NCBI GenBank assembly: GCA_000934665.2
Contig: KZ538773.1
Coordinates: forward strand, 1 to 48,456
Length of the DNA: 48,456 nt
Direction of reading: 5' to 3'
Origin: Catajapyx aquilonaris
Lineage: Eukaryota
Shown here: positions 1 to 48,084 of the stretch, piece by piece
How positions within the stretch are numbered: position 1 is the first letter of the stretch
How the letters are laid out: the number at the start of each line of letters is the position of its first letter
The notes under the pieces: model-generated
The model's database searches: none
Told to the model about the DNA's origin: nothing
What the model saw: the letters and a program-made list of their open reading frames with translations, nothing else
Translations under genes and position numbers: made by a program

Positions 1-20
1 CGTCAATATGACGTAGTTTT

Positions 21-457: not shown

Positions 458-678
458 GCTGTGATACAACACGAGAAGATGGAGGAGAACTTTCTGTTTG
501 GTCTGTGTTTGTTGCAGCAGGCCGAATTCTACTACCTTCTTCCCAACACGAAGCTACAAAAGGTGGCTCCTCCAGGATGGCAAAATGGCCAGGTCTTTGG
601 CGTGAATACATTTGTTCCTGCTACCTGCCTGCTTTACTTCCGAACAAAGTTCTACCTTCCGTCACTCAAGTATATAAG
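458..678 (+). CDS. Coding exon, FERM F1 lobe (AVIQHEKMEENFLFGL...FYLPSLKYI)
   Basis: Acceptor tttttacag|457/458, donor AG|gtatga 678/679; 221 nt, phase 0-2. Confidence 0.92.
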
Positions 679-757
679 GTATGAAAATCAATCACTTGAT
701 ACGGTGGCTTTTTTTGGCAAGTAGAAATGCCCTGTCACTGAGACCAGTTTTTTTCAG

Positions 758-896
758 GAACACAAAGACAAGGCACTACTTGTACCTGCAATTTCGACGA
801 GACGTACTGGAAGGGAGAGTTCGAACGTCGTCTAGCAACCACCTTACCTTAGCTTCACTGGCACTTCAGATTGAGTTTGGAGACTATTGCTCCCAG
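758..896 (+). CDS. Coding exon, FERM F2 lobe (RNTKTRHYLYLQFRRDVLEGR...LALQIEFGDYCSQ)
   Basis: Acceptor ttttttcag|, donor CAG|gtgaga; 139 nt, phase 2-0; FERM signature ALQxEFGDY. Confidence 0.95.
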
Positions 897-1178
897 GTGA
901 GATGGCCTACTTAATCAGTGGCATGTGCCAAAGCAATAATTATTATTGGTGACGGCAAATTGTCAATTTTACAGTTCAGTGGTGCAATTGGCACTTGTGA
1001 AGGAATGACACACTATGTGGCTTTTGGAGACATTCTGTTGTTGAACACCTTCCGCAGATATTTTCTGCCAAATGTTCACTGCCAATTTCTAATGATTAAA
1101 ACATTGGCAGTGGTGCACTCCTGATTTTATAATACAATGCAATTACGGAGTTAATTTAATTTTTGCTTATTCATTCAG

Positions 1179-1579
1179 GTTCATGGGGTGGCCCCATATT
1201 TTGTTGTGGACCACTACCTCCCAGAATCCATATCGAAGCTACTGGGAAAAGTACAAGCAAGGAGGACCCTTTGTCTCCTGCACCAGAAGCTGTCTGGACT
1301 GAAACCCCATCAGGCCGAGGCCCGTTTTATTGAGACAGTGCAGAAAGCAGACCTGTTTGGTGTGCACCTGTACAGGGTGTTTGGGAAGAACAAGGAGGTT
1401 CAATGGCTGGGCATAGGAAGCCAGGGGATGTACATGCTCAAGGAAGGGAGCTTCAGGGCTGCTGATGTAACACAGGCATGCCCCTGGGCAGAGATTGAGA
1501 GGGTCTCATACACCAAAAACAGCCTCAGCATCACTTCCACTAAGAAGGAGAAGCATAAGTTCTATATGCACGGTGGAAT
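1179..1579 (+). CDS. Coding exon, FERM F2/F3 lobes (VHGVAPYFVVDHYLP...KHKFYMHGG)
   Basis: Acceptor tcattcag|, donor AT|gtgagt; 401 nt, phase 0-2; motifs HYLP, AEARFI, FGVHLY, WLGI, PWAEIERVSY. Confidence 0.95.
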
Positions 1580-1649
1580 GTGAGTTCTCTTGTGACTTTG
1601 AACTTCAATTAGCGCTTCCTTCTGGTCAGTGTATTTATCTCAGTTCATG

Positions 1650-2331
1650 CGAGGGTTGTTTCGCAAATAAGTTTCCTGTTGTAATTATTTCTGAAAGTAT
1701 TGTACATATGGGGAAATTTTTACCGCCAGCAGTTAGAGGACCTTATTCTCTGTGTGAGCCAAATTTGGTCTCCCTTGTGTACTCCATGCATGCGTAGGAG
1801 CAAGCGGAAGAAAGCAACTTTTGCGGCGAGCATGCCCAATTCATAAGAGCTTGAGTCAAAGGACGTATACAAAAGATGAAGTGAGGGCATTATCTGCAAG
1901 ATCCATGTCATCGTCCAGACAACTGTATCCACAGTAACCCGCAGCAGATGGCTGTGACAGTGTGGAAGAGGAGCAGCGCCGTGAAAGGTGGTTGACTCGA
2001 AGACTAAGGTGAACGTCGAACTTGTGGATGCCATTATTCAAGCCAACCGACGGGTCACTGTCTGGTCACAGTTGTCTGGAGGATGACGTGAAACTCGCCG
2101 ATAACTGCCCACACTTCATCTTTCATCCATGTCCTTTAACTCAAGCGCTTATGGGCAATGGGCACGCTTGGCATACAAGTTGCTTTCTTTCGCTTACTCC
2201 TGCACATGCGCAGCGTGCATGAGGGGCATGCAGAATTATGTGGTCTAACCGCTGACTGTGAAAATTTCCCCATATGTATAATACTTTTGGAAATAATCGC
2301 AAGGGGAAATTTATTTTTGGAACAACCCTCT
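1650..2331. mobile_element. Fold-back mariner-derived non-autonomous element (MITE-like)
   Basis: Ends CGAGGGTTGTT...AACAACCCTC. Diverged inverted arms of about 280-290 bp (about 1650-1940 vs 2050-2331), e.g. tacatatggggaaatttt / aaaatttccccatatgta. Flanks tg/ca fit a decayed TA duplication. Confidence 0.85.
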
Positions 2332-2961
2332 CATCTGAGAGCTGTTGCACTTTTTTGCTTGTCCAGCATGAAAACGTGTTTTCTGGTTTCTGTTTTCCCA
2401 CATCAGGGTATTTCGATATGAACTAAGCCTCCTGGAAAATACTTTAGTAGTCAACCCAAAGACAGTATCTTCCAGATAATTAATGTCAGTAGTCATTTAC
2501 TGGGTCCAACATTTCCCTGAAGTAACATTCAAAATGCCATTATAACCATTCTATCATTTGTAGATAAATAAGTATTACAATGCTTTTGAGTCATTTATTG
2601 AAGTTTTTTACAAGATCAATGTATTGCGTGATACCGTATGTGAATGATTTTTTCTAAATGCAAAACTACTGTGTAACTGTAAAAGCAGGTACTTTTTAAA
2701 ATGTGACTAAATAGGTAAAATTATCTGATGGTGACATGACCCAATGAGGTTCATAGAGCTTTAAATAGTGATCATGCATAAGATTTGTCATGCCTGTACA
2801 ATAGTGTATTACAATATTACAATATTTTATTAACAACATAATCTGACAGGAGACTACGAATGCCGACAGGCAACATTTAATTTTTGTCAGGTATTTCAAA
2901 AGTTTGTTAGTGATCATTATTCTTCTTTAGTGTTTTTAACATTGTCATTTTTTATTTGCAG

Positions 2962-3050
2962 GTCTCAGTACATATTTAATCTGGCCTCATCACACCACCA
3001 GTTCTCCCTAAGGCTCAGACTAGGTGTCAAACTGACAGACATAAATCAAG
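2962..3050 (+). CDS. Coding exon, FERM C-terminal helix (SQYIFNLASSHHQFSLRLR)
   Basis: Acceptor ttttatttgcag|, donor AAG|gtaagt; 89 nt, phase 2-1. Confidence 0.9.
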
Positions 3051-3553
3051 GTAAGTTTCCAGATGATCTGCTCTATCAGTGTTCAGATTACAAAAAAACT
3101 AATCCCAGAGGAAGTAACAGTCATATTGCTGGAATATTGATGCAGTAAATTGTCGATTCATAATTTTTGTTGCCTGACAGGGGTGAAATAATTGATGAAT
3201 GAGGGAAAATTATAAATGCAGGGGCCTGCATATTATGAAAAAACGTCATATTTGCCTGTATATTTGCTACATCAAAAATCTTTTACAAATGTTACTTTTC
3301 AATTGTCAAGTCAAATCAGCATTCTTGTTTTAAAAAAAAGTCATTATAGTCATTTGTTTATTATCATTTTTTCCTTTCTAACTGGACAGTAAACTTTTCA
3401 ACATTCACAATGTTTTCTTTGTAGTCTTTAGTCGTGACGTGAGCATACAAAACTCGTTAATGATCAGATAAATAAAGGCATTCATTTTACATCTCTCCAG
3501 TAAATGAGAGGAGTTGCGTACGTAACATTAATTTCAAATCCATGACATTCCAG

Positions 3554-3952
3554 AGTTTGGCTTCTCCTTGGTCAGTCAGCATCCCAAACGAAAGGAAGTC
3601 CAACGCTGCAAGACCCTTCCACCACTCACCAATGTACGCACAGCCCGCAAACTGACCCATTTTCCATCTGTACCCAACCTTTTGTCAGAGGAGAAACTGT
3701 CTGAGTTCAAGCCCCTCCAGCCACACTGTCCTGTATGCAAGTATGATCTACCAGTGCAGCCTTCCATGGGGGTCACTGCCACTGTTGCCAGCCAATGCGA
3801 AACATGTGTTGGGGGCAGCAGCGCCTGGATTCTTAAGCCCAAAAACAATCCCGGCAGCATTCGGATGGGCACCAAAGTGTCTCCAAGTGCCATTCAACGG
3901 CAGAGGGCAAGAAGCTTGGAGGATCTGCTGGGGCCTAGTGCGTATGTGCTGG
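3554..3952 (+). CDS. Coding exon, FERM-PDZ linker
   Basis: Acceptor attccag|, donor TGG|gtgagt; 399 nt, phase 1-1, open frame, GC-richer than flanks. Confidence 0.85.
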
Positions 3953-4028
3953 GTGAGTAATTGGGACCTTACAAATTGTCTCACAGGAGTCTTATCAATT
4001 CTGACCACACATGTATTAATGATTTTAG

Positions 4029-4274
4029 ATGCAAGCATTCACTCCCAAGATCAGACCTGGAAGGTTGACTTTGACGAGACCATGAGCAGCTCCCTTGCAG
4101 AGAGGTGGGAAAACATGTCAGAGGTGGAGGGTGAAAAGGTCATTGTGAGTGTGAAGCTGACCAAAGGACAAGATGGGCTTGGAGTGGTGGTGGAGGAAGG
4201 GAGAGATGGACGGGTGCAGGTGACCAGAATTAACCATGGTGGACAAGCTCAACAGAATGGGATGATCAAACCTG
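4029..4274 (+). CDS. Coding exon, N-terminal part of first PDZ domain (VKLTKGQDGLGVVVEEG...GGQAQQNGMIKP)
   Basis: Acceptor ttttag|, donor CTG|gtaaga; 246 nt, phase 1-1; PDZ carboxylate-binding loop K..GLGV. Confidence 0.92.
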
Positions 4275-4424
4275 GTAAGACTGATTTGACATTATTGTAT
4301 CATAAAAATTACTGATAAAGATTGTTGCTCATAAGCAGCACTAAAAATCAAAGATGACTGATGAAAATGTGACCCTTAGCCACATTGAATTCAATGATTA
4401 TAATGACTGTCTGTCACATTCCAG

Positions 4425-4562
4425 GTGACTACATAATTGGAGTTAATGGGCACAACTTGGAAAACATGAATTATATGAGTGCTTTGCAATTTCTACAGAA
4501 TACTTCTTCAGAAGTGGAACTCCTGGTTTCGCAAAGAGTATGCAAAACAAACTCAATGAAAG
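4425..4562 (+). CDS. Coding exon, C-terminal part of first PDZ domain (GDYIIGVNGHNLENMNYMSALQFLQN..VELLVS)
   Basis: Acceptor attccag|; donor AAG|gtgagc at 4562/4563 (phase 1). If that donor is not used, the frame runs to TAG at 4645. Confidence 0.9.
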
Positions 4563-5479
4563 GTGAGCATGAGTTTTCCTCTCAGACGTATTTCAATGGG
4601 CAAGGTATGGCCATTACGGAAGAAACATTCAGTTTAATTGTTTAGGCTGTTGGGAGACAATCAAACCAAAAAATGACATTTGCAAAATGTATCTGAAATT
4701 GACAATCAGGTTGATGTGATACAAAAGATAGATCTCCAAAACCAACTGAGTTACCATTATTTTACTAGTGATTGTTGTGTTCAGCTTGTGTTAGCTTTTC
4801 TTGTTGACATTAATTAGTAATAGAAATAGAGAATTTTAACATGATTAATGATAGACTGCTTTGCCATGATAATGTAGTAACACTGCCAAAGTTAAGCATA
4901 GAATATGAGGTATTCAGCTGTGTTCACACATTGAGTTGTTGGAGTTGGGATCCATCTATGAGCACATTGTGTGGTCATCCTTTTCACTGGATGGCTTTTG
5001 CTCATTGGTTGATCTCAACAAATATTATGCAAGACAAAGACAGACTCCCGAGTGATACACATTTATGCGTAACCAAAATGCGAATTAGATAATCAAGCTT
5101 CGTTAGTTAATATGTAATTAGTGGTACTTTCGTGTGACTGCATTTCTACAGAAATTATTTTAAGATAGTATTATATACATTTTTGGAACAATATTTCCTA
5201 CTGGACAGGGTGATTTTACTTTGTTTTGCTGAAACATTGTGAAGTCCTGGAACAATCACATTTACAGAAAGAAAAATAATATATTGTTTAATTAGACAGT
5301 ATAATTATATTACAGGAAATTCTTACAAAGTTGAAAAGCATTTAATTATACGAGTTAGTACTGTACAAAAATTTGTTTTCTTATTTTGCATTTAACGTTC
5401 AGAAAGGATTATTATTTGCTACTTCAATATTGCTTGAAGAACTAGCATTATAATATTCACCAATTAATCCCTAATTATA

Positions 5480-5801
5480 CAGTATTCCCTCTCCATCTGC
5501 AAGGTATACGTAGGTTCAAAGCACCTTCATGGAAGCTTGAAACTCCACATAATACGGAACTCTTGCACAAATACATTTTAAACTTTCATACATACAGTAT
5601 GTGTGTGATGCAGTTTAATATAAAAACTACACGCATAAAGACATGAATAAAAGCAATTTACATAATTTAGAATATTTAAGGCAATTCTGTACTGTAAAAA
5701 GAGACTGTTGGATTTATCCTGAAATTGAATATTTTCATTTCATATATATTTATTATTTGTAAACCTTGGATAATTGAAACTGCAGATAAGTGGGAGTACA
5801 G
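5480..5801. mobile_element. Degenerate pogo/Tigger-type MITE
   Basis: TA|CAGTATTCCCTCTCCATCTGCA ... TGCAGATAAGTGGGAGTACAG|TA imperfect TIRs with TA flanks. Confidence 0.65.
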
Positions 5802-6023
5802 TATTTCTTTACTACTGAAAGAAGCAGTCAGTCACTGACACAACCTTTTGAATATTGAGCATGGGAAACATGTCGAATTAGATCACCTTCCTGTGATACT
5901 GGGAATGGGTGAGGTGGCATTAATGCAAGATTTTTAAAGAAAGTATGACATAATAAAGATTTCAATTATGGTGACATTTTGGAATAAATATGCATTTGAA
6001 ATAATTAGTCCATTATGTTACTA

Positions 6024-7019
6024 CAGTAGAACCCCGATTATCGATCACTTGAGGCATGGTCGGAACACAAAAAAGGTCTGATAATCCGAGGAGCAAAGAA
6101 AACTCTAAGGAAACAACAAAAAACCTAGAAAAACATGTACAATACAGGGTGATCTGTTTGGGTAGGGATAATTATAAAATGCTATGGTGTGTGTTGTAAC
6201 AGACAGAATTTATCCAAATTAGGCAGAGATTACGTTCATGAGTGGGAGTTTGTCTAGGTCTCCACATGACCCCCTTTGCGTACTCGGTAGAATTGATATC
6301 AGGTGCTCAATTCCTGCCACGTGTTTTGTAACATTTCTGGCGTGATTTGTGCGAACACTGCAGAAATTTTCACCTCCAGGTCATCCAGGCTTTGAGGTCA
6401 TTTTCCGTAGATGAAAGTCTTCACAAACCACACACAAATAAATCGTGGGGAGTGAGATCCAGGGAGTTTGCAGGCCAAGGATTAGGGCCACCATGATCAC
6501 ACCAATTGTCATAGAAAGTGTTGTTGACGTTCCTGACTTCCAGTGACCAGTGGGGCGGAGCCCCATCTTCCTGGCAAATGACATTGTTGTCCAGTTGTGG
6601 TACCAAGAAGAATGTCAAAGTATGGTCCTGCTCATATTATGTCCTCAGAGAGAAAAACAAGGTCCGTACAGCTGGTTACGCCACATCCAGCCTCTTCTGT
6701 CACGATGCAGGCCCAATTCAGGCGCACTGAGTACAGTGCATGAATCTCCTATCTTCGTCAAACTAACAGAATTTCAACTTGGTACGGCTTATGTGTTGAT
6801 TATGATACATATTTTAAATTATCCGTACCCAAACGGCTCACCCTCTATTATGGTGTATTATGGGTGTACTCTACACTCTACTGTACTGTATTTACAATTT
6901 ACCTAAGACAATATGAAACAAATGTGTAGTACATTACAGTATTTGATTTGAAAAATATACATTTATTGCTGGAGCAGGATGGTTGGATAATCAGAGGTAG
7001 GATAATCGGGATTCTACTG
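6024..7019. mobile_element. pogo/Tigger-type MITE interrupted by a nested element
   Basis: TA|CAGTAGAACCCCGATTATC ... GATAATCGGGATTCTACTG|TA (18/19 TIR match), subterminal GATAATC repeats. Confidence 0.85.
6145..6845 (-). mobile_element. Internally deleted Tc1/mariner element with transposase remnant (rosa/DD41D-like)
   Basis: TIRs TA|CAGGGTGATCTGTTTGGGTAGGGATAATT ... AATTATCCGTACCCAAACGGCTCACCCTC|TA. Minus-strand remnant QEDGAPPHWSLEVR...GGPNPWPANSLDLTPHDLFVCG, with 40 residues between the last two catalytic Asp positions. Confidence 0.88.
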
Positions 7020-8046
7020 TACCTACTGCAGTTGCTGTAAATGAAAAGCAACATGTAGGCTTACTATGAAAATATGTGCAAATTATGAAAGATCTATTTT
7101 AAAAACAGACAATCAATTTTGACAAAAAATACAGTTGCTGTGATTTACTAAGAATTAATTTGTTAAAAACACCCAAGAACTCGAGTTTTGGCAATAATTC
7201 ACCCGAGATGCTCGTGTGTTAATAAACAAAATTAGTACATGCAATTTAAAAGTACAATAAAAATACAGTGTATCCATATAAATATATCAAATTATATTGG
7301 AAGGAAAAAAATATGATAGAATAACAGCAGCATTTGAAAAACCCAGCTGCATAATGTTGTTTCTCACTCCTTGGGGCATTTAAAATTACTCAAGCTGTCA
7401 GATTATTCTAACAGAATAAAATAGATGAATTATTTATACATTCTGGAAGCTTTCATGGGATTACAGTTTTGCAGAAAAACAAGTGATGTTTGGATTGTTG
7501 TATGTATTACTTACCAGATTGCAAATGTTATATTTTGAAAATAAAAGTAATCTACAATACAGTAAGTCATAAAAGAAACTAAATAATTTGAGAACTGATG
7601 CCACACGTAAATCAAAAAAATTCAGTGTCTTAATACCATTGTGACGAAATATTTTGTAGGAAAAATTATTCCTGCAAAAACCGGTTTTGTTATCACTTGG
7701 AGAGTAATTATTAGGAAAGGTGTTATAAGTTACATCTTTTGAATGAGCATGCACACTTTTTGAGGGGTATCCAATATCTTCATAAAGTTTGTGTTGTTTG
7801 CAGTATCTTTTAATTGCTAATTTGTTGTAATGCAATGTGTCAAAAGATTACTAGGAAGAGTGAAGATACCCACCACTTATTGTTCATATGCAGTAGAAAC
7901 TTTGTTTTGTTTTGGTACATTTTCGATGTGTTTTTTTTTTTTTTTTTACGATGATGACCTGCATATTATGAATTTTTGCTGAATGGTACGACTCTGTTAT
8001 ATTGCATGCATTATGTTATTTTTCGCAAGCAAGTATGGTCAAGTTT

Positions 8047-8052
8047 AATAAA
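8047..8052 (+). terminator. Candidate polyadenylation signal of the upstream block
   Basis: AATAAA followed by T-rich tracts, near the end of the CpG-poor domain; AATAAA is common in AT-rich DNA. Confidence 0.25.
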
Positions 8053-9567
8053 CCATTCACTTTCCTTTTCCGTTTTTTTACCATAGCTATTACATTGGTT
8101 TCAATGTTTTGTTACTTTGTTTCAATAACGCACTTTTGTAACACCATGCACTGTTTTGTTTCACCCCTTATGTTGCACTAACCTCACTGCATTAAACCAT
8201 TTTTTTCAATCTATGTCTTTTATCATTTGTTGTTACCCTGTGTTTTTATGACTTTTGCATTTTTATTTTGCCAATGTTAGCGACACTTCTAACACTGAAG
8301 TAAACTAAATTAAATTTTAACATAGGCGCATACACCAGTGATATTTATTCAGCCTTTGTCCTTCGCAATTGTTTTGTATTGTTGACCCAGGAGGCAGCTT
8401 AGTGACCTGGTAGCCAATGAGCAGCGGGCATATCCTCTGCATGAGTCCGAGTGAATTTGATCATTGTTGATTAGGAAACGAGTGCCAGGCGGGCCAACTC
8501 GGAATGCGGGAACAATATAATTATATCTCTCCCTCTGAGGGACAGCAGCCGAGGGGGTGTTGATATTGGCCCGGTTTGCAGTATACACACGTGTAGACTA
8601 TGTAGTGCATGACTGTGTGTGTGCCGAGGGGTGTTGTAGAATATTAAGCGAAATATTGTGCACAAAATGAAGCTTGATAGTGACAGTTCAAATTGGAAGG
8701 GACACGGGCCATTTTTCGATGGGCCATGTGGTCATAGCTAATGTCATTGCGAATGACGTAATCCGCACGATTATCCTATCTGCTTGGACCGTTGGGAAAT
8801 AATACGCTTTTCGGTGAATGTAATCTTAATTAGGTTCGGGAAAAACAAGAGTATAACAAGCTTGCTCGTTTTTCTTTTTTTAAAAGTTCTGATTACACTC
8901 TTTTGAAGGTGACCGTGAAAACTCTGCGTAAATTTTGTAATCAGCAAAAAAAATATTTTGCCAGCTCATTAAAATGCGAGGAAACTACGTTCTTATGAGA
9001 GCGAGGGAGTTTTTAACCAGATTTTTGTTAATGAAGTTAGCTTACGTAAGGAGAAAAAAAGTTGGGGGGATCAAAGCAGAATTTTGAAGAGAATAAATCA
9101 GAGAAGGATTCAAAGGCTGATAAAATCAACCCAGAGGAATTTTGAAAACTGGGTATATTTAAAAAAAAAGTTCTTTAAATTTTAAACAGTATTTACATTA
9201 TTTGTTATGTTTTCCTTATGGACATTCTCGTACTGTCGTACATTGTGATGGATTTTTTAAACATTGCTATGTTGTTTTGACATTACGATTTGCAAAAATC
9301 TGCAATTAGATTATGTACTGTACATATGGGATAATTTTGTTTGCTTTCTTGAAATACATCCAGCTCTTGTTGTGACGCAAATGTTTCTTTTAGAGACAAT
9401 TTCCCACATAAAAAAGCACTTTTCATTACTGTACCTTTAATTCCTTACGGGACAACCAGTGTGCATAACAATAGCCTTTTCATAAGATTGCAAACGGGTT
9501 GATCAACTTTCACCAAAATCGGATCATCCCAATTCCATTACCAGTGCCGAAAACAATTTTGCTGTTT

Positions 9568-9869
9568 TCAGTCAACAGTAAAGAAAGACGGAGGACAAAA
9601 AAAATAAATCCCCTTTTCGAAATTTGTGACATTGATCCAATTTGTGTCACCCTTTGTGTCGTTCGTGATAGAATGAAGTTGACGAGGAACGTCGTTTTGG
9701 CGCGGACTTTGCGCAGAAGCAGAAGTTGTATGCAGGGGTTACCACAGTTCCTCTTTTTTTGTCCAGAAGCGGCATTTTGGTAGGGGGGTGTCTGGATCCA
9801 GCACGAGACACTCCAGATGAGGCCCAGCTGCCGCAGGGATAGGACGTGTCGATAACGAGGTCCCACAAG
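9568..9869 (+). promoter_or_regulatory. Candidate initiator and non-coding first exon for the downstream block
   Basis: TCAGTC (arthropod Inr consensus TCAKTY) at 9568 and donor AAG|gtcagt at 9869/9870; stops in all three frames before the donor. Confidence 0.25.
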
Positions 9870-15800: not shown

Positions 15801-17939
15801 ACCTGTACACAATTGTCTTGGACGTGAGGAGACTCACGAAAAAAGGGGGAAAAAGTCCACTCTTTGGAGAAAAAGGGGGGACTATTTCACACCTCCTTTT
15901 TCGTGCTCCGGAAAATCCTTCTAAAAGTCTCCTATGAAAAGAAGGGATCTGGAGTCGGACCACCCGGAGTTCCTAGGGTTCTTTTGGAAGCCATCTTGGC
16001 CCGAATCTTCACCCTAATCCCGTCGGTTGCACTCCGAAGAGAATACGAAGTGTCATTTTATGTTGGCAAATGCATCATGGAGGAACAGGACATTGTTCAT
16101 GTGCAGAGTGAAAAATTGCTGCCGTTAAAGTGTACCACGTAACCTTTTTGTACGACTGTCGCGGAATCCCTTGCAAATGGAGCACACTGTGAGAGGAGTT
16201 CACATTTTCATAAGTGGATATCTTTTTTTTAAAAATGTATGCAAAATAATATGGCGGGACACTGCTAATTACCAAGTTGATATTAGTCTACTGTAATTTC
16301 TGCAGTATGCAAATATCATTTATTACACCCTGATTCATTGCCTTTGTTTTAACAGTCCTGCAGCTGAGTACTCATAGGGGCACACATATAGTGTAATTAG
16401 GCAGCGTTAGCCCACAAGTTTTCACTCTCTCGGGTAACCCGCACGCTAATTAAGCGATCCAACATCAGTGCTTACGACTCTGCTTCATCAAGTTGCTTAG
16501 TGCTAAGCCCAGTTCTGAAAATATGGGAAGGAAACACCACAAATGTTAATATCCATCCTATAAACCGCATTACACAACACGTAACAAGTACCTCTTCTAA
16601 AAATTGCACATCTTGATCTTGACCTTTCGCCAATAAACAAAATTTGCAAACTCTATTTTTCCGTGTGTGTAAATAAACGTTACGTCCAGGTGGAACGCGT
16701 TTTGGACCACGTCCAGTACCTAAATGGGTTAATGTATAGCGAGAAAAAATGGTTTGAAAAAAAAAAATCCCACACCCTAGAAACCCGGGCCTTTTGCCAA
16801 CGTTATTGCCAAGTTTTTGGTAGGGGTTAGAACTCGGGATGCAGCAAAAGGAAAGGCGTGCCCTGGGAGTCAAATGGGACTAGGGGACACACAAACCCAA
16901 GCCCCACCACCAGCCCTCGTCTCTTCTCTTCCCGTTGTGTCACCCAAATCAATATGGAGAGTAAAAGTGGGCGAACATGGGGCGGGGGCGGAGAGGCCTG
17001 TTTTCTGTGCAATTTCGCCCCAAATTTGAATTTATGGTCATGACTGGCGGGGGTTCTTTGGAAGGATTGTCATCATTGGCCAGTGAAATATTTTGAAATT
17101 GTGTGTGTAAACAATTCGTTCCTGCAGTGTTAGAACTATTAAACGCAAGAAATTCTTGTTTGAACCCANCCCCCCCCCCCCCCCCCAAAAAAAAAAAAAA
17201 TGTTTATTTTTGAAAGTAATGGAGATTTGTTAAAGGTACGAGGCTGACAGGTTTCAATGTGTCGACGTTGATGCAATATGTACCTGCCCATTAAGCTGTC
17301 TTCTTTAAACAGCGAGTGCTTTGAAAGTAAAGGATCAAGGGGTGACTGTAAGCCCTTTGAAAACGTATCAAGGAGATGTTGGCACCTATCAAAGGACTGA
17401 CGTGTTCTGGTTATAATTCTCGAAATTGTCGCACAAGGAATGGAATTCACAACCTAGCAAAACTATGCAGATACTGTATACCTTGCACGTGCAATTATTC
17501 CAACAATATTGCATAGACAGCGCAAATTTGTGGAATGAAATGCCAATACAGTATACTTTTCCACTTTCGGTCCAAGGACCCTGATACAGTATATTTAAAG
17601 TCCACGTGCCTACAGTAGGTACCCAACATTCAATTTTAGAGTTTCCAGATAGTACAGTGCAGAGCAGCACACCATAACATCTTCAGAGTCCAGAAGTTGG
17701 CGGAATCATCCCGCCACATGTATCATTACGAGGTCTTTTCCCGTCGAAAGAGGAACCACCCGTCTCCATCAGAGTGTCACATTACATACCATAACGCAGA
17801 TAAGCATCTCCGCAAATCCTAGAAACATGGCAACACTTTGGCAAACTATTTTGGCACGGGTTCTCACACCAGCAAAAAAGAAGCCAGAAGCTAGAAGTAG
17901 GGCAGTAATGCCGAGAAGAGAGCCAGAAGCAGTTCGACA

Positions 17940-18408
17940 ATGCGAAGTCCGGAACCTCCCGGTACGCGATACCATTTCCAAGTGAACGTGCACAAATCGA
18001 AAGACACCTCCAGATCCTCCATTTCATCCGGATCCCTGACCCGACCATGCTCCTTCTCGGCTTCCCTGCCCGGAAAATGGCGTGGACCAGCCCCTGTGGT
18101 CAAGGTCACCGCAAGTTTCAGCGAATCCAGGAAATCCGGGACGGACAGCAGCATCAGACATGTTGTGGCCCGGAGCCAAACCTGTCCTACGATGGAAGTA
18201 CGGCAGCCTCCTCCGGATATCAGGATATACTCGCCTACAAGTCCGGTGAATACGGGTGTTTCGTGGAGGTCAGTGCCTCGTCCTAAGACGATGGTGATGG
18301 AGACCATAGCCGAGAAGGAGAGGAAGGAGAATGTGAATCCGGATCGTGGGAAGAAGTCCAGGAAGAGGAAGGTTGTCCGAAAGAGGAGGAAGAGCCGTCG
18401 AAATGATG
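17940..18408 (+). CDS. Probable first coding exon of downstream block (MRSPEPPG...RKRRKSRRND)
   Basis: GC-rich 156-codon ORF, acaATG start, in-frame TAG at 17898. Donor ATG|gtacac is weak, but phase 1 matches acceptor 38420. Confidence 0.65.
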
Positions 18409-18477
18409 GTACACTTTATTTGATTATTTACTGAAAACTTATACTTGGTGTACACATACTTGTCTCAGTAATTACTG

Positions 18478-18639
18478 CCGTACCAAGGTAAAACACCCTA
18501 ACTTGAAAACTAGTAAGGATGAAAGTCGCATGCACGCCCTGCACTAATCCCCTCTGAGTCAGGGGGGGATTAGTGCAGGGCGTGCATGAGACTTTCACCC
18601 TTACTAGTTTTCAAGTTAGGGTGTTTTACCTTGGGACGG
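18478..18639. repeat. 162-bp near-perfect palindrome (probable hairpin MITE)
   Basis: Arms of about 80 bp (ccgtaccaaggtaaaacaccctaacttgaaaactagtaagg... / ...ccttactagttttcaagttagggtgttttaccttgggacgg) with 4 mismatches and one indel, centre TGAGTCA. Confidence 0.95.
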
Positions 18640-32039: not shown

Positions 32040-32087
32040 CACATATCTTAATTTGACAGCGGTTGCTCACATATCTTAATTTGACAG
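32040..32087. repeat. Short direct duplication (CACATATCTTAATTTGACAG x2, 28-bp period)
   Basis: Direct reading. Confidence 0.85.
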
Positions 32088-33576: not shown

Positions 33577-33630
33577 AGCTGTGACGCTCCTCACTAGATG
33601 GCATGCCATCTAGTGAGGAGCGTCACAGCT
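33577..33630. repeat. Perfect 54-bp palindrome without spacer
   Basis: agctgtgacgctcctcactagatggca|tgccatctagtgaggagcgtcacagct, 27/27 match. Confidence 0.97.
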
Positions 33631-38419: not shown

Positions 38420-39109
38420 GTGAAAGAGGCCAATCGAGCAGCTCCGACGATGAACCCCCGGTCTCGTTGAGGACCCGAGCCAACCGAGCCCGTAAAAATA
38501 ACCGGCGTCTCGATGTCCTAAAAGAACCTGCCATCTTGGAAGAAACATCAGGCAGCATGGGTGCCAGGTCATCGAAGGGCCTAAAAGCACGGAGCCGGTC
38601 GTCTGGCAACCTGTACACAGTCAAGAAGGGAGAACTAGTCGACAGGTTTAAGCTGGGCGGGTCGGTACCGAACAACCTGTGGGCCGTGGGTAAGAAGAAC
38701 GCGTACCAGTACTCGCACGAGGACCTGGTGGTGAATCGGAACAGGAAGAATCAGATGTACCAGAATGGGTGTGAGATTCATAGGCATCAACCGCAGCATC
38801 CGTACCACCAGTCGTTGCCTAGGAGCAGCGGTGATTTGGTGCACAGCGATACGTGTCCGTTTATGAGACAGTACGACGAGGATGGATACTACATCTCTGA
38901 GAGGTCGGTGGACCACGACATCTCCTGGGAAGGTTCCAGGACTGCTCCGGGTACTCCAGGGTTCCATCCGGCCAGTAGGGGTTGCGAAGACAAGGCGGTG
39001 ATGACTGTGATGATGATGATGCAGCAGTTGGATGCTGAGGATGAAGAGGCAGATAGTACCAAAAGGGAGTTCTCAGGAGGGAGAATCAACTACCCGTTCA
39101 TTGCCAAAG
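38420..39109 (+). CDS. Coding exon, low-complexity region before PDZ (GERGQSSSSDDEPP...INYPFIAK)
   Basis: Acceptor tcctccccag|, donor AAG|gtaatg; 690 nt, phase 1-1; GC-rich coding-like codon usage ends at the donor. Confidence 0.88.
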
Positions 39110-42100
39110 GTAATGTCCACAACAAGTCGTCACCACAATGGTTTTTGCTTATCTTTCAACTTGTTGAACTGAGGGAACTATCCAGTGTACCACGATATCA
39201 TAGCACAGGGGATATTGAAACAGCTGTGCGAGGCAAAACATTCGGGCTGTCAAAATATTGGCCTTCATATGCCACCCTGCTTGTTTTTCCTGGTCGAGTT
39301 GTTACAATGAGGAATGCATTCAAATCAGTGTGGGGGAATATGCATGGATGGGGGCTATCGAAATAATCCACCAGTTTTGTTCAACTTGTGAGTTTTGAGA
39401 GCAATATTTATTGAGTTCAGCTGGGAAAGATGACTGGGGATTTAGTGTAGATCCAAAATAATGTATAGTTGGACGGAGCATTTTTTACTGTACCATAAAA
39501 TTGATGACTTTTTTCCGGACTAACCTGAAGGCGTAGTCTCTTATCGTATTATGCAAACATGGAAATCTGACTTTCAAAAATTCGAATGAAAAATGCGACC
39601 AGTTCGACGAAGAGACATTTTGGCTAATAATTCTGCGAGTAGGCTACTGCATGGTTTGAATGTGACATACACTGTGAGGGCAGAGTGAAGTGCAGAATAC
39701 AAAATTTGTGAGTCACAACTAAATATTTATTAGGCTGAAATGGCTATTCAGGGATTAGAGGTAGATTCCATTCAATTTATTGGTCATGACTGTATTGCAG
39801 TATTTATTGAAATGAGGTAATCAGGCTAAATGCTTCTCGAAATGGTGCTGTTCACTCTTAAAGCAGTATGTATTGTCATTGGAGAGGTTGAGCGGAAATG
39901 TACTACGTTACCCAACATTCCCTGACTTAATGTGGCCTGTTCCTCGTCACGGTTACACACACCGACTTTTCTTTTTTTTTTGCCAAATTTTTTTCGCCAG
40001 GTGTATTGTTGGAGGCAGTTGAGGGCACGTTAGGGTTAAGAACTCATTCAAGGAAACGAAAGGGCGACGAACCACCTCCGGTCTTACCGTCGCTGCAGGC
40101 CCAACCAGCATTACAAAATCTCTTTAATCTGCCCCGTTTTGGCCCCCCTCCCCCCCTTCCTTGATTAACTCGTTGGGCAGCCGAACTGGAAAATTAATTG
40201 GCCGACGCTCCCACACGTCGGCGCCACTTGAGGAAGTCCCCCAGGCGGTTTTCCCGCCTCCACAACCGAGAAACTTTTAGCAAACAAAGTGGTGGAATTC
40301 GGGGCTCGGAAATTGTTGGCACAGGCCTTGAAGGGTACCCAACTGTGTATGCTTTTGCATTCCGAGTCCGGAAGAGTGGGGGGACTGAACTGGAGACCCT
40401 GAGTCAGCAGTCTTTTTTGATGGTGAAGGAGTGGCGGGTACTTCCAAGAGGGAACAGTCACATGGCGCCTCTGACGTCAGTATAACCTAATTGCCATGAT
40501 TCCTGACCTACACATCAGTTTCGCGTGACGCCATTGTTAGGAACTATATAAGTGCTGGATTGCTTCATAAGTTTGTGAGCTGTGACTATAGTAGAAAATC
40601 TTTGGTTATTCACAACATATTCAGATTGTAAATTTTCCTCGATAAAACCGGCTTGTAGGAGGCTGTTTTACCCCAGAGAATATACGCAATGGATCATCTA
40701 GATGTATTGTACAGTACAGTAGGGCCTACTCCATTGACTCTATCCTCGTGTGTTCGTTCAATCGACTATCCTAGTAACGGGTGTCTTCAGGTCACGGAGG
40801 TCAGCCACTAGATCCTCAGATAAGCCCCAGTGAGAAAATGTATAGGTTCCCAACGATCGCTTCGGATTTGTTCATTTGGTCCAGCTCCATCAGCTCTCTC
40901 GGGGAACTCTTTGAGAGTCTGCGGACAATCCCAAGTACTGTCCAACTTCGCAATTTTTTAAAGTCCCTCACGCTTCACAGCCACCACACACACTCTGGAT
41001 CTGATAATGTCAGTAAAGTTTACGAGTTCCTCCATAAAACTGTTCAAACGGCGAATCACTATTTTGGGTCCAAAATTGAACAAGACCAGAAGTGGTGTAA
41101 CGTTCGTAGGATGTACGACTGAAAACTTATCATGATTGTACAGTGCTGTTATAACAGTACATCCAATAAATTTAGTCCAGTATTAACCCCAATCTACAGT
41201 AAATCCTGACTAATGAACATAATCAATTAGTCGCTCAAATAAATGACTATACCTGTAAAAACCGCAAAGTCCTGTTCACCTGCACCAAAATGAGAGCTTC
41301 CCTTTTTTTGTGACCTAGACGAACTTTTTTTTGTATGGGCAAAGTCTGTAACTCCAGTGCGAAACCCATCATCCGAAATCGGATTATCCACGCCTCCTTA
41401 CAAGTCAAGCCCCGCCGCCTAATTAGTCCTCAATTGCAGGAATGAATCAGGTTCCCCCCCCCCNCCCATCCTTGATTTTCTCATCATCCACTCTTTTTCC
41501 GTCACACCCAGTGGATATTGGGAGCACGAGAAAAAAAAAGCTATCGTATAGTTCCAGGCCGGAACTTTGAGTCGCCTGCAAGGCTCGAATTGGCAATCTA
41601 ATCAATATGTCTCCATTTTGAAATTTACACCATTTTGCACTTTGAAAGTCTAAATCATGGACAATAAGCGAATGTTAGATGAATTTAAGAGGGAAAAGTT
41701 AATGAGTGATTTTTTTAATGACGCGTTTTTTTAAAAAATTTTGGTGCCGCACTTTCGAGCGTAATTAGCTGTGCACTGTTTAAAATTAAGGGAGAGTTTC
41801 CCTATTCAGTTGTCAGTTATGTTTTTATACTTGAGTATGGATGTAGGTCATTTTTTCCATGTCTGCCCAGAGATGTAAACATCTAACTAATTTTTCTTTA
41901 CAATTTAAGAAACTGTTTTTACCTTGCTGGAGGTAATATAGAGGGCGTCATTGTAACATGCTACCCACAGGAGAAGGAGACAGTTTTCATAAGTCCTGCT
42001 TTTATCTTAGACCTGTAGAATTCCTCACGCGCTCACACGCACAAATATAATGCATATTACCCTAATGAGTTTTCCTAATCAGCCATTCTCTTTGTCTTGG

Positions 42101-44112
42101 ACCCCAAGAGTAGTGCTGGAATATTCCCAGTAGGCGCTGAGGGATAGTCCTTCTCATGCGTCACAACAGACGACCGCAAAGTGGCTCATTCTAGGCTTCC
42201 CTTGAAATTCCAAGCCAGCCTATGCGCACATAGTCATGTTTGCATGGACAAACCGCGGCTTTTCCACCACTCCCAGAGCCGCCATTAATTATAACAGAGC
42301 TTTAAGCTACACAGCCAGGGCTTCCGCCGCAAATCCTCCTTTCAGAGGTTTTCGAGGTATGAAAACCCCAGACTCCCATTACGAATGGAGTTAAAATATT
42401 TTGAATTTATATCCCAATCTCTCCGGATGCGTTAGATTTACAAGGATGTTCGTTAAAATCATCGGAATGGGCGGCCATTTTTTTTTCTTTGTTCATGTGA
42501 TACATTCGAAGGTAGCAAGGAAGGTAGTATGTAATCTGATCTGAAGTGGGTCGTCGATCGGCGCCAGGGTATTTTTCTATAGACGATTGTTGATGGGTAT
42601 CGATTCCTTGTCAAAAAAAGTAGGCTCTTTCGAAACGATTTTTTTGTCCCTCATGTTCTATTAGTACGATGATGTGCCGAATGGTTTTTGTTGAGACGGC
42701 CATGTGTGAAAATATTTAAATATATTTAAATATTTTCAGTTATACACAGCTGCCAGCTGTACTTTACCACGAATAATTTTTAGGAGCTTCTGAGTGTCAG
42801 TGAAATGTTAGAAATCGTATTGTTGACGGGTAGAAGAGTCCTACTGAAAAGGACTATTAATAGCACGAGCTACATTAGCGCCAGGCTATAAATATTGTGG
42901 GGATTCCCCGAAGGCCTTCGAGAAACTAGTTCCGTTATTGCTAGTGGCCTGCTTTTATCTAGCTTTTGAAGTGGATCAATCGCAGTCTTGATATATATTT
43001 TTTTGTGTGTGTTTCTCTCTTTGATGTTCAACGGGCGTAGGAAATTCTTCCCAGCTTTAGTAAAACTGACAGAAACAAAAGCCAGCCAGAAAAACAACAA
43101 TCGGAGTAATCTCGGGTCAAGGATGAGATTTAATTTTTCATGGCTTCGTAAACACTTTGTTCTGTTTCGAGTCTGGCGGTTTTTATTTGCATATTTTCAT
43201 AACATTTTTTTTTGCGGGTACATTTTCCTGCAGTGGAAAATTGTGTTTGGACCCGCAATTATGTTGGAACTTTTTTTTGGTGAACATTTGAATAGCCTGG
43301 AGGTATCGGCACGTTGTGGCCTTATTAAAAACTCATCAACTTAATTACGCCAACTGTTTTGTGTGTGAATGAGCGGTGAACCGAGGCATGTGAACCCGGA
43401 GGTTCGTGCTTTTGTCCAGGAATTTCATACAGCAACTGGGTCTCTCTTCATTAACTTGAAGCCAGAGAGGTGGAAGCTAGGTTAGGAGCAGGTCACATAA
43501 ATTTTAAAAATAATTGTCAAGACCAGTAGCCTAATTTTGAAGTCATTTGTATACTACTAGAGGCAATTCTGGTTCTTTTTTTGCTGTTGTCAATCTGTCT
43601 TCATGTGTACTACGAATCAGTTATGCCATAATATTTGCTTTAAAAATGTAGTACGTCGGAAGCAATTTGGGGCCCGACCCTGCATACACAACATCCCTTG
43701 GCGTAGAAAGTGGGGCATAATTCATATTGATGATGTCGGGTCTGCGGATGAGTGATGAGATTTTCCCAGGAGGAACACGTTTCAGGCTCGTGCTATGTTT
43801 GGAAACCAGTGTCAAGGAAATGAGGTGGGGATGGATTGGCAGAAAAATGACTTCCTTGGCACTTGTCCCCAAGTCCTGCTCCTCTTTCGCCCTTGGGGAG
43901 CTCTAAATACTTTCACTCTGTTAACTAATTTGTTTGCACCCTTCCCCTGCAAAACAGAGTGTTTGTGTACAAAACAAGCTAGTTACGTCAAGGGTCCCAC
44001 ATGTGCACAGCCCAATGTATTCAGAATGAGAATAGTACTGATGTCACAATAGGCTAAAAATGACTCTCAACAATATTGACATTGTTACTAAAGGATTACT
44101 TGGAGGAATTTA

Positions 44113-44199
44113 TATGGTGGATATGTTCGTGGGTCACTTCTTGATAACTAATATCGCCTGTAGTTATCAAGCAGCGACCCACGAACTTGGACCACCCTG
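44113..44199. mobile_element. Miniature Tc1/mariner-type MITE (about 87 bp, almost only TIRs)
   Basis: gttcgtgggtcacttcttgataacta / tagttatcaagcagcgacccacgaac arms; right end ACCACCCTG|TA, left flank TA. Confidence 0.8.
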
Positions 44200-45067
44200 T
44201 ATTGAGCAAAATGGTAGAAATGCAGTAGACATGTAACTTGTATATTTACGAAAATTTTATTTCAGGTAAATCTGCCTAAATATTAAATTACAATTTATGG
44301 AAATTATTAATAAATAAAGTTACCCGATCGTTTCAAATTCACATATTTAGAAAAATGTACTTCAGGTGAATAATTTTGAGTGTAATTTAAGAGTAATTTT
44401 TGCCTTTATATGATTGAAATTTGCATTTAGATGAGTTAACTGTACGTAACACATAATTCGATTTTTTAAAAAAATCTTGCATTTTTGTCATTTTCTTCAG
44501 AATCTTCCCATTTTGCTTTTTTTTGTCATATTTTTTGATGCAAGGAAGGTCCGAGCGAATTTGAGTTTTCCAGCCCGATGGTTTTCAATTTTCGGTAGGG
44601 AAAAAGCAATCGGTCCTAGGTCCAAGTCAATTCCGGGCTTCTTGTGCCCCCCCCCCCCTCCCCCTCTCTCTCTNTCTCTCGTAGTTTTTTTTGTTGCGTC
44701 TGATTTAGATTGATTTTCCTTCCCGTCCCTTTGGGATTCGGACGCAATGAAAAGATTTACATCTCGTTTCGAGTAGCAAAAAAAAAAAGTCAATTTTTTG
44801 GTCATGCATGGACCCAAAATCGCAGAGTGCACTGTAAAGCTTGAAGGTTATTCTATCTGCTTTTAGCAGGGTTTTTCCTTCCTTCTGGCAGATCTGACAT
44901 GCCATGTTGATTTTATTGCCTCGAAAAACGGAAATGACGGTCGGAAAATAATTTGTCACATCACAATGTTATTTTGTAAGTGGATGTGAATAATGTAAAT
45001 TGTATTCCAATAAGTGCGGATTCTGTTCAATAAGGGAACATACAATAATTGTGTTGCATTGTTGCAG

Positions 45068-45276
45068 AAAATACATTTGAGGTCCTGGTGAGCAAAGGGT
45101 CGCATGGTCTAGGCCTGAGTGTGTGTGGAGGCTGTGAGACCAAGGAGCCATGGCCCGGACTGATCCGGATCAAGAAGATCTTCCCACATCAACCAGCGTG
45201 GCAAACTTCCAGACTCCAATCAGGAGATATCCTCCTAAAGGCAAATGGGGTTCCACTCTCAGGCTTAAGCAACTAC
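45068..45276 (+). CDS. Coding exon, PDZ domain (ENTFEVLVSKGSHGLGLSVCGG...GDILLKANGVPLSGLSNY)
   Basis: Acceptor gttgcag|, donor TAC|gtaagt; 209 nt, phase 1-0; GLGL and GDxLLxxNG motifs. Confidence 0.95.
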
Positions 45277-46086
45277 GTAAGTATAGATATCCGTATTAAC
45301 TAATCTAAGCCACTGGCTAATTAGCCTTAAGCACTAAGTAGAACGAAGTAGACTTCAAAACCAGAAGCTCTTCTGCTTCCAAGACATGTTCTTACAAGCG
45401 TCACTAGCAGACCTTCTGAAGTATATGGGACCTGTCAACTGTAGATATTTGTCGATTTGTAGCCAACCCCATCATTTCCGATTCGAGGCAGCGTCATGGG
45501 AGGTGAGAAATTGCCAAAATGCCTGTGTGATTTTCTGGTCCTCGATGGAACGCGATAAATCAGCCGAGTGCAGATCGAAATTGACCACTGAGAGCCTGAT
45601 GGGCTCAGGGTTTTTGTGGGAGCCATAGCCCCAAAAGTGGCCGCAAATGGAACTGACAACACAAGGCATTTGGGTGTTGCCGACCACCTTTTAAGGCCCC
45701 CCTGAAATCCTGTTTTCCTGTAAAACATCCGGTTTCCACTAGGGAGTGCTGACAATCGACACGGAAAGTTACTAAAGGACTGACAGTGTGTAACATAAGT
45801 CGCTGTCGAAACAGGGTCACAGGCTATCTCATGGGGCTAATAAAATAACTGGGGGTAAAATATTCAGGTAACAAACAGAAGTTTTATCTTCACTGCCGAA
45901 CTTGTAACGACCTCTTGAACGACACTTGAAAAAAAAATAGTGCGACCTACTTACGTAGCTTGTAGTGTTTCCCAAGTTTGTCGTAACCTGTGCTCGAACC
46001 GTATTTTCTAGTTAGGGAAGTCATCACAGCCTCTGATTCTTTAAAAATTTAAAGAGATAAAATGTGACCACCACACTTGTTCACAG

Positions 46087-46290
46087 GAAGCCCTGGAGGT
46101 ACTAAGGATGACCCCATCCGAGACGGTGCTGACCGTCTGCAGGCCAGTGGCCGGCATCTTCAGCGCCGCCATGGCCCTGGTGCAGAGTCAGCCTGACCTC
46201 AGCACCAGCACCAGCTCTAGTCAAACGGAACTGGCGCCTAGTCACCACCTAAACTACCTGACCCCTCCCAACAAATCAGGACCATGCGGG
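46087..46290 (+). CDS. Coding exon, end of PDZ (EALEVLRMTPSETVLTVCR) plus linker
   Basis: Acceptor ttcacag|, donor GGG|gtaagt; 204 nt, phase 0-0. Confidence 0.93.
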
Positions 46291-46352
46291 GTAAGTAAAG
46301 ATGACCTTACTTGTCGAATTTGAAAATAATTTACATATGGTGTTATTCGCAG

Positions 46353-46505
46353 GAGTTTGAAGTATGCTTGACCAAAGTTAACGGAAGTTTGGGATTCACG
46401 TTGAGGAAGGAGGACGAAAGCATCATGGGCCATTATGTCCGAGCTTTGGTCAAGGAGCCGGCCCTTTCCGACGGCCGGATCAAGCCTGGAGATAGGATCA
46501 TTTCG
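46353..46505 (+). CDS. Coding exon, next PDZ domain (EFEVCLTKVNGSLGFTL...GRIKPGDRIIS)
   Basis: Acceptor ttattcgcag|, donor TCG|gtagga; 153 nt, phase 0-0; SLGF loop. Confidence 0.95.
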
Positions 46506-46612
46506 GTAGGACCCAAGGCTTATCTCTTTTACATAATGGCCCCCCTCTTCAGTGTTATATACGAGAGGGTCTGAAAATGAGACGGGGCGAGAGAGCGCCA
46601 ATAGGCCTATTA

Positions 46613-46626
46613 GTCGCCATGGCAAC
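46613..46626. promoter_or_regulatory. RFX X-box consensus match
   Basis: GTCGCCATGGCAAC fits GTNRCC-AT-RGYAAC; function untested. Confidence 0.35.
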
Positions 46627-47135
46627 TTGTATGAAATTGGGTGAAGCTGTTGGGGTTTGATGTGCTCAAGGATTGTTATGCGGGGGAGTCATGAGGTTAG
46701 GAGGATTATCGACTTGGATGGGAGCAAGTTGAATGTAAGATGCGGGTAGCAGTAGGACACCCTGAGGGAGGGAGGGGGTTAACAACTGGATTTAAGAGGA
46801 TATAACCATCGGATGGGAGATTTAATCTTGGTTAAGAATTGTGACTTAATCGCTTTTTGGTGCATATGGATCGAGTTGAAGATGTCTGTTTCAGCGACCT
46901 GTCAACTGCAACTGTCTTGAAGACAAAAAGTTTTTCCTCATGACATAATCTTTTGAATAACAAGCGTTTTATAAGGATGAACTGTATTTCGACCTAGTTG
47001 GTCGTTGCTCGAGCGTGCCGTTGACACAATGAGGTCGAATGAGGGATCAGGGATTCTGCAGGGGGCGACGGCCGCTGTGCTGCTGTCTTGTGTACTGAAT
47101 CCCCGACTCTAAAAGACCGACTTTCAACTTGTCAG

Positions 47136-47305
47136 GTGAACAGCGTGGACTTGTCTCCCATGAGCCACGCCGAGGCTGTGGCTTTCCTGAGGAAGTGTCC
47201 GGATGAGGTGACGCTCAGGCTGTTCCGGGACGAGTCTCAGACACCCGTGTCGCCCATGTCGCCCACCGAGTCGGAGAAAAAGTTCAGGCCCAAGCCGCTC
47301 TTGAG
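47136..47305 (+). CDS. Coding exon, end of PDZ (VNSVDLSPMSHAEAVAFLRKCPDEVTLRLFR)
   Basis: Acceptor cttgtcag|, donor GAG|gtactg; 170 nt, phase 0-2; HxEAVxxLR helix. Confidence 0.94.
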
Positions 47306-47369
47306 GTACTGTAGTTTGACACTTTTGATGTAGTACTGATATGTAACTGATCAATTATTTGCTTTACAG

Positions 47370-48084
47370 GAAGGAGGCAATGGACATGCTGTGCGACTTG
47401 GCCGTTCGTAAGATATCGTCTCCCAGCGGATCTCCGGGCACCCCGTCCCGAAGACGCCTGTCTCTCGATCCGGGACAGCTGTCCGGATCACGTCGTAACT
47501 GTAGGCGGCTGACCCGGACGCCTCCGAGTCCTGACCACAGGCCGGCGGATGAGAACTCCTGGCCGTCCAGCCCGTGCAGCAGCATCTCGTACATGTCACC
47601 TCCTCCGGACTTCCGAAACAGGACGTTCGTGGTGGACAACCCGGACGCCACATTCGACGTCCCACCTAAGAGGCCCGATTTCTTGGACCTGTCCGGCTCC
47701 AGGAGGCGCAAGAGGTTCGTGCTGTCCGATCGCGGCCAGGACAACGGGGAGGATGTGCCTGACAGCAGCGGTCAGCCGGACAGCGTGGTGTCCGAGCCGT
47801 CCAACCGGCCCAAGTTCAGCTACCACAACCCGGCGTACCAAAGCGCGACGGTCACCGGCTGCACCGGAGGAGAGTCGTCCCCTACGGCCATGTCGGACAG
47901 GGACATGACCTCTGGGGCTGCCGCAGGGGAAGGGGAAGGGTCTCAGGGGCTGCTCAAGTGGAAGGGGGTGGTGTTCACCCCTGAGGAGGAGGTCACCAAA
48001 GGGCTGCTGGGGATCAGGGAGAGCCCGGATGGGAAAGAGGACACCTCGGTGGGTGAGAAGGACGATGACAGCCAGGAGGAGAAG
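47370..48084 (+). CDS. Coding exon, Ser/Pro-rich region (KEAMDMLCDLAVRK...LLKWKGVVF...SQEEK)
   Basis: Acceptor gctttacag|, probable donor AAG|gtgggc at 48084/48085; 715 nt, phase 2-0. Otherwise the frame stops at 48129. Confidence 0.88.

Follow-up and report, generated by a model that had tools for sequence, protein, structure and literature searches.

Does the locus that fills the 48,456-nt contig C1472 (KZ538773.1) of the 286-Mb Catajapyx aquilonaris genome hold one gene related to PTPN13, or two genes that were once one? The contig was analysed in its entirety and is called the window below. Exons for a FERM domain and one PDZ domain lie at its left end, and exons for further PDZ domains lie far downstream on the same strand. 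The answer to which we incline, and which we consider rather probable, is that PTPN13 was broken by an old pancrustacean fission, that its halves still stand in tandem here, and that they most likely encode two membrane scaffolds.

What do the two blocks encode? In the front block seven exons between 458 and 4562, separated by GT-AG introns, give an open frame of 544 residues with the order FERM-linker-PDZ, ending at a phase-1 donor, and Pfam finds FERM_N, FERM_M, FERM_C and PDZ in it. Along this chain on the plus strand, the end of FERM_N is encoded at 458..678 (Pfam), with two preceding pre-FERM/FERM_N exons on the neighbouring contig C2473, FERM_M at 758..896 (Pfam E 1.6e-11), FERM_M/FERM_C at 1179..1579 (Pfam) and the end of FERM_C at 2962..3050. 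The FERM-PDZ1 linker exon, 3554..3952, holds a short motif common to the lobster and insect orthologues, and PDZ1 is encoded in two parts, 4029..4274 (Pfam and the PDZ tree) and 4425..4562 (Pfam), the latter with the strong donor at its end. A long imperfect palindrome with several arms 75-83% complementary, probably a fold-back element, occupies 1647-2334 in the third FERM intron.

The downstream block is a plus-strand chain of seven exons, from 17940 to 48129, that gives an open frame of 885 residues with two PDZ domains. It begins with an exon at 17940..18408, to which we return, and a phase 1-1 exon at 38420..39109. PDZ3 starts at 45068..45276 (Pfam, a PDB match and the PDZ tree) and ends, together with a linker, at 46087..46290 (exon chain); PDZ4 is divided between 46353..46505 and 47136..47305 (Pfam and the PDZ tree for both parts). 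Pfam gives no match above its cut-off in the exons at 17940, 38420 and 47370. The last of these, the PDZ4-PDZ5 linker exon 47370..48084, has a phase-0 donor that joins in frame to two PDZ5 exons, located using PDZ5 of the louse; on contig C9126 one occupies 704-853 and the other runs from 1107 up to the stop. In the traced frame a stop codon stands directly after PDZ5. The FERM-PDZ and PDZ-PDZ exons of the original prediction hold in their coordinates and phases, as judged by GT-AG chains, open frames and Pfam.

Are both blocks parts of PTPN13? Ninety-seven PDZ domains, from 27 PTPN13-type proteins and the two window models, were placed in a tree by a quick search with SH-aLRT support only. 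In this tree of PTPN13-type domains alone, the window domains fall in the PDZ1 (SH-aLRT 90), PDZ3 (93), PDZ4 (94) and PDZ5 (81) groups. The window PDZ3, PDZ4 and PDZ5 adjoin domains 3, 4 and 5 of a scorpion protein, P0017, with support of 95 for the PDZ3 pairing and 96 for that of PDZ5. The two window models tile this protein in order, at residues 507-790, 867-1016, 1492-1767 (E 3e-49) and 1874-2009 (E 2e-19), and the match extends through sequence beyond the domains. Best matches of the window FERM are mostly PTPN13-type; the domain is of the PTPN13/FRMPD2 type and groups with PTPN13-like proteins of scorpion, lobster and insects, and the quick tree together with the co-linearity marks PDZ1, 3, 4 and 5 as orthologous domains. 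A word-index search with the FERM exon gave no homologue among 133 candidates. Tree and scorpion co-linearity bear out the PTPN13 domain order that had been claimed for the two blocks, and the derivation of both from PTPN13, in the ancestral order, is supported on sequence grounds.

Parts of PTPN13 were looked for and not found. A PDZ2 profile run over 2145 open stretches of the window matched the known PDZ exons alone, in a search that could overlook a very short or decayed exon. No KIND domain was found in 30 of the 31.8 kb of C2473, nor with a lobster query, and the three Pfam KIND matches are on a contig other than C2473. A PDZ-PDZ-PTP product had been predicted; the stop after PDZ5 refutes it for the traced frame, and none of the 69 PF00102 matches lies on C1472, C9126 or C2473. 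Since neither PTP nor PDZ2 was found in these searches, the locus should not be filed as a PTPN13 phosphatase. Outside the arthropods, a profile counts nine PDZ domains in a Hydra PTPN13-like protein, P0031, for which Pfam gives no PTP match; this suggests that further independent losses of the phosphatase may have occurred.

Is the family divided in the same way elsewhere? A profile built from seven FERM-PDZ1 proteins, applied to proteins of 398-1778 aa only, found 148 homologues; among the 120 listed, 117 have one PDZ domain, three have none and none has more, and the named members are insects, of ten orders. Many of the listed proteins have a hydrophobic tail end (e.g. QVFI, QIFL or LSYL), and the tail varies between orders; such an end might conceivably bind the PDZ domains of the back protein. 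The proteins of Panulirus (a lobster) and Darwinula (an ostracod) have PDZ1 only and stop after it. In one FERM tree the window domain belongs to a clade (support 94) with the lobster, the ostracod, four nameless proteins and 16 insects, and lies outside the winged-insect group (98). A FERM search without length limit gave 71 matches; a second tree was made from 67 of these and five further insects, the four remaining rows being too short or impossible to align. In this second tree PDZ2-5 are absent from all 33 other rows of the window's clade; 19 have PDZ1 only and 14 have no PDZ, the latter being uninformative, as they may be fragments. Multi-PDZ forms occur outside the clade.

The complementary half is found as well. 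A search with the PDZ3 exon, covering proteins of 122-2000 aa, gave eight proteins among 34 candidates (three of Timema, one each of Polyplax and Anopheles, and three nameless), none of them with a FERM or PTP family match; PDZ3-4-5 proteins without FERM are, that is, present in stick insects, a louse and a mosquito. The scorpion keeps FERM and five PDZ domains on a single chain, with no PTP match. An intact form in the outgroup and complementary, non-overlapping halves in the ingroup make the pattern of a gene fission. Since split forms are common to insects, lobster and ostracod, a single early break explains them most simply, and nothing in it is special to this genome. A fission had indeed been predicted, and the CpG step and conserved start described below, with the one-PDZ homologues, speak for there probably being two units; what is not supported is that it was special to this lineage and independent, for the same division in ten insect orders, the lobster and the ostracod leaves it independent only of vertebrate FRMPD2/PTPN20. 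As for the flies, no dipteran is among the 120 listed of the 148 FERM-PDZ1 homologues, though Anopheles has the PDZ3-5 half; loss of the FERM half in flies is only a lead. The fly gene CG15803 was considered as a possible orthologue; the literature covered gave only an unrelated paper, and the idea was dropped.

How might a half without FERM reach the membrane? Met-Gly-x-x-x-Ser is the motif rule for N-myristoylation. Exon 38420 holds blocks common to louse and mosquito, the first of which is MGxxxS; it stands at the aligned position in the window (ATG 38557, in a good start context), the louse and the mosquito, 3/3 lineages whose models span the region, while the Timema PDZ3-4-5 models lack the region. 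The N-termini of window and louse align with a score that 1 in 300 shuffles equals. Going by the motif, a protein begun at the candidate start 38557 would most likely be N-myristoylated. According to PMC7763032, FERM is both necessary and sufficient to bring PTPN13 to the membrane, so a myristoylated start might be a natural substitute for the FERM anchor.

Where might the first unit end and the second begin? The observed/expected ratio of CpG (CpG o/e) is 0.29 in the FERM exons, 0.53 in the FERM introns, 0.42-0.45 from 4563 to 8.4 kb and about 0.75-0.81 downstream, with the best change point at 8439; the CpG-depleted domain extends into C2473, over its first 5 kb. CpG depletion serves as a proxy for germline gene-body methylation in insects and other invertebrates, in the account of PMC5915941. 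The depleted stretch 4563..8430 of the plus strand may represent the 3' end (last intron and/or 3' untranslated region) of the FERM-PDZ1 unit, with an AATAAA followed by a T-rich tract at 8047 as a candidate poly(A) signal, and the G+C- and CpG-richer stretch 8391..8800, at the change point, is a candidate boundary or promoter region. Two transcription units at this locus are probable, on evidence that is indirect. Within the depleted stretch, at ~6022-7021, lies an insertion of about 1 kb with short inverted ends beginning TA and no Pfam match in its long frames; it is probably a decayed DNA transposon.

What, then, is the exon at 17940? It is a single-copy, coding-like exon with an ATG and a basic cluster, attached by the exon chain and the codon model. 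The original prediction held that upstream stops keep it from being an ordinary internal exon. An in-frame stop does stand upstream of the ATG, at 17898, but the frame could still be entered internally, since seven phase-1 AG sites lie inside; the five of these that the acceptor matrix scored, or that were listed near it, are poor, and 43% of intronic AGs score at least as well as the AG before 17983, a weak AAG. The frame runs 177 codons without a stop, a length reached in 19/2000 shuffles for a region picked post hoc. In the proposed frame the codon score is 0.285 bits per codon here and 0.278 in exon 38420, as against 0.02 and 0.18 in other frames, and of the 86 long frames that separate the blocks these two exons take the top two places. 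Coding-like codon use ends at 18408, where the donor is weak: with a matrix built from ten of the window's own donors, 54% of 2393 intronic GTs score as high. The CpG o/e of 0.90 is like that of the downstream gene and unlike that of the FERM block. No homologue was found for the exon, nor a usable match in the ESM Atlas, and comparison of its frame with the mosquito and louse N-terminal extensions and the scorpion linker was not significant (93, 47 and 127 of 300 shuffles, respectively). The downstream gene probably uses it as an alternative first coding exon. The argument for fission can dispense with it, the conserved start candidate being the MG at 38557. Two further elements lie close by: a second ATG-led frame of 52 codons at 17828-17985, in another phase and overlapping the start at 17940, which scores as non-coding and may be an upstream open reading frame, and a 162-nt hairpin element at 18478-18639, 70 bases behind the exon, whose 75-nt arms are 96% complementary.

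A number of observations weigh against so tidy a division into two genes. The donor at 4562 is strong, in the top 1.3% of the intronic GTs, and its unspliced continuation, in which the frame ends 26 codons on (about 4643-4645), scores as non-coding at -0.28 bits per codon over those codons, so that the donor is probably used. No last exon of a FERM gene was found in 4.6-17.9 kb with tail profiles of four insect groups, acceptor scans and the codon model, the codon scan being blind to exons <40 codons, such that a short, diverged last exon would slip past; the first good in-frame acceptor backed by coding DNA is 38420. The CpG change point has a gain of 17.7, and the highest value among 500 permutations is 8.6, but the permutation ignores local clustering, and part of C9126 is CpG-low as well (0.40), so that depletion may mark exon-rich or 3' regions and not gene limits. 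The N-terminus of the window compared with that of the mosquito alone is not significant, 63/300 shuffles scoring as high. The trees are quick searches without bootstrap and without PDZ families other than PTPN13. With searched lengths of 398-1778 aa and 122-2000 aa, long fused isoforms in relatives could be missed; the sampling takes in one chelicerate cluster and no myriapod; and the split in relatives is known from protein models. In Timema shepardi the numbers of the FERM-cluster member CAD7256947.1 and the PDZ3-5 model CAD7266312.1 are far apart, which is uninformative on linkage. The number of units, the age of the break, the myristoylation and the role of the 17940 exon are all things that we infer.

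Might the locus be only partly fissioned? A full-length FERM-PDZ1-PDZ3-4-5 product would then be made by splicing 4562>38420 across 33.9 kb, with 17940 skipped, beside short products, namely FERM-PDZ1 by early polyadenylation and myristoylated PDZ3-4-5 from an internal promoter. Such a locus would be a living fission intermediate, one that stops short of the complete separation found in winged insects. We take this to be a tentative possibility, on the unlikely side. It is kept alive by the want of a partner exon for the 4562 donor before 17.9 kb, and no other destination was found for it. To its credit the fused frame is open, the strong donor and a fair acceptor at 38420 (top 11%) are both phase 1, none of 105 long open frames between the blocks has a Pfam match, and the window FERM branches outside the winged-insect clade. 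A joined FRMPD2-PTPN20 transcript in zebrafish embryos and HEK293 cells, given by reverse transcription PCR (RT-PCR) results in PMC3335823, means that mixed states do occur in the PTPN13 family. The original prediction pointed to the in-frame joins, and both 4562>38420 and 4562>45068 are open; exon 38420-39109, however, has phase 1 at either end, so that the two joins amount to a single coincidence. Phase 1 is common at the locus, the last three introns of the FERM block all being of that phase, and a phase match by chance has odds of roughly one in three or better. No fused form is found among the 33 clade rows or the 120 listed homologues, within the searched lengths, and the CpG step at 8.4 kb also speaks against continuity. 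In the lobster, isoforms X1 and X2 part at one and the same junction within PDZ1 and differ by 107 residues from there on. A stand-alone gene must then have a phase-compatible intron after PDZ1 that leads to a last exon of its own; a donor like that at 4562 can evidently serve such an exon. If a joined transcript does exist here, the locus displays an intermediate step of fission, and it would be one in which the downstream half gained a lipid anchor before the halves separated in winged insects.

One might suppose instead a single gene of the usual kind, whose FERM unit takes in part of the 17940 frame as an internal or last exon (entered, for example, at the AG before 17983) homologous to the insect FERM-PDZ1 tail. 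The join 4562>17983 is in frame, and a five-residue motif of the 17940 frame beats 991/1000 shuffles against a tail profile of beetles, moths and caddisflies. That match is the best of 20 post hoc tests and ranks only third to fourth window-wide (E 2.5-2.9), neither the profiles of other orders nor the lobster last exon gives a match, the acceptor is the weak AAG, and the CpG content sides with the downstream gene and not with the FERM block. We judge the proposal improbable. As a FERM gene tail the 17940 frame was borderline at best against the insect tail profiles, and was rejected. Chance neighbours, an unrelated multi-PDZ gene behind a FERM-PDZ gene, are hardly credible: full-length PSD-95 tops the PDB rows for the 45068 exon only by the sum of three weak domain matches, the tree holds no non-PTPN13 outgroups, and the ESM Atlas clusters nearest the louse protein are generic PDZ, auto-named Dlg-like and GRIP-like, yet the best single-domain match of that exon is PTPN13 PDZ3 (E 1.7e-12), three domains group in order with PDZ3, PDZ4 and PDZ5, the scorpion's included, and the scorpion match continues outside the domains.

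What evolutionary steps would account for the old fission that we favour? The arthropod lineage would first have lost the C-terminal phosphatase, leaving a scaffold of FERM and five PDZ domains, to judge by the one scorpion cluster, the insects and this genome. A break between PDZ1 and PDZ3, with loss of PDZ2, may have followed in or before the pancrustacean ancestor, as the spread of split forms suggests. The front gene, FERM-PDZ1, would reach the membrane via its FERM domain and end in a tail of its own; the back gene, PDZ3-4-5, would have its own MGxxxS start at 38557, a lipid anchor for three PDZ domains replacing FERM. The 17940 exon would probably open the coding sequence of another isoform, longer and not myristoylated. 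The halves would still be in tandem here because no rearrangement came after the break.

The order of contigs on which this account draws, C2473 (reversed), C1472 and C9126, is established by inverted ends and target duplications at both joins. Each join is spanned by one insertion, its inverted ends and 8-bp target duplication flanking the break, with the contig ends inside it: on the left window 1-146 with C2473 1-153, on the right window 48400-48456 with C9126 1-607. We take the insertions to be hAT-like from the length of the target duplication. Among the long introns, short palindromes, perfect or near-perfect, lie at 33577-33630 and 44125-44186, with 27-nt arms and no spacer and with 26-nt arms, respectively. 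The intronic 24 nt at 40975-40998 are 92% complementary to 45114-45137, where the PDZ3 exon codes for the peptide-binding loop. Pairing in the pre-mRNA, bearing on editing or splicing, is possible, but chance is likely, as both arms resemble CA/TG repeats.

How does all this compare with what is known? Gene fission itself is known, and each half already has models of its own in the databases, under names that mislead: 'PTPN13-like' for proteins that lack a phosphatase, 'FRMPD2-like' or 'uncharacterized'. We found no account of the halves as a split PTPN13 in the literature covered, to which subscription journals contribute little, and it seems unreported that the two complement each other as parts of one ancestral gene, divided in crustaceans and insects alike. 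Such a split would give the scaffold functions of PTPN13 testable counterparts in beetles, moths and mosquitoes, would separate the membrane-anchoring and cargo-binding parts naturally, and would provide an example in which a lipid tag took over from an anchor domain that was lost.

The likeness to PTPN13 of vertebrates and other animals (PTP-BL, PTP-BAS, FAP-1) lies in FERM and PDZ1, 3, 4 and 5, whose order and tree groups agree; the window locus differs in that PDZ2 and KIND were not found, no PTP follows PDZ5, and there are probably two polypeptides. The nearest intact relative among those compared is the scorpion 'PTPN13-like' protein P0017 (Centruroides, XP_067136231.1), tiled as it is by the window models. 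It differs in being one chain of 2020 aa with five PDZ domains, and in a linker without significant match to the 38420 or 17940 exons. Insect and crustacean proteins named 'FERM and PDZ domain-containing protein 2-like' or 'PTPN13-like' (Tribolium, Anabrus, Timema, Panulirus) likewise have FERM, a single PDZ1 and the linker motifs, with 24-42% identity over the FERM alignment, and tails after the PDZ domain without clear counterpart in the window. On the other side stand Timema CAD7266312.1, Polyplax KAK6629940.1 and Anopheles XP_058176237.1, with 62-75% identity over the PDZ3 exon and the same three domains and linker motifs; for these insect proteins no counterpart of the 17940 exon was found. 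Vertebrate FRMPD2 and PTPN20 are alike in that a PTPN13-like locus is annotated as two adjacent genes, and differ in being a vertebrate paralogue in which PTP is retained. FRMPD2 presumably keeps three PDZ domains, in which case its break point differs from the arthropod one. The parallel with FRMPD2/PTPN20 suggests that the PTPN13 architecture breaks repeatedly.

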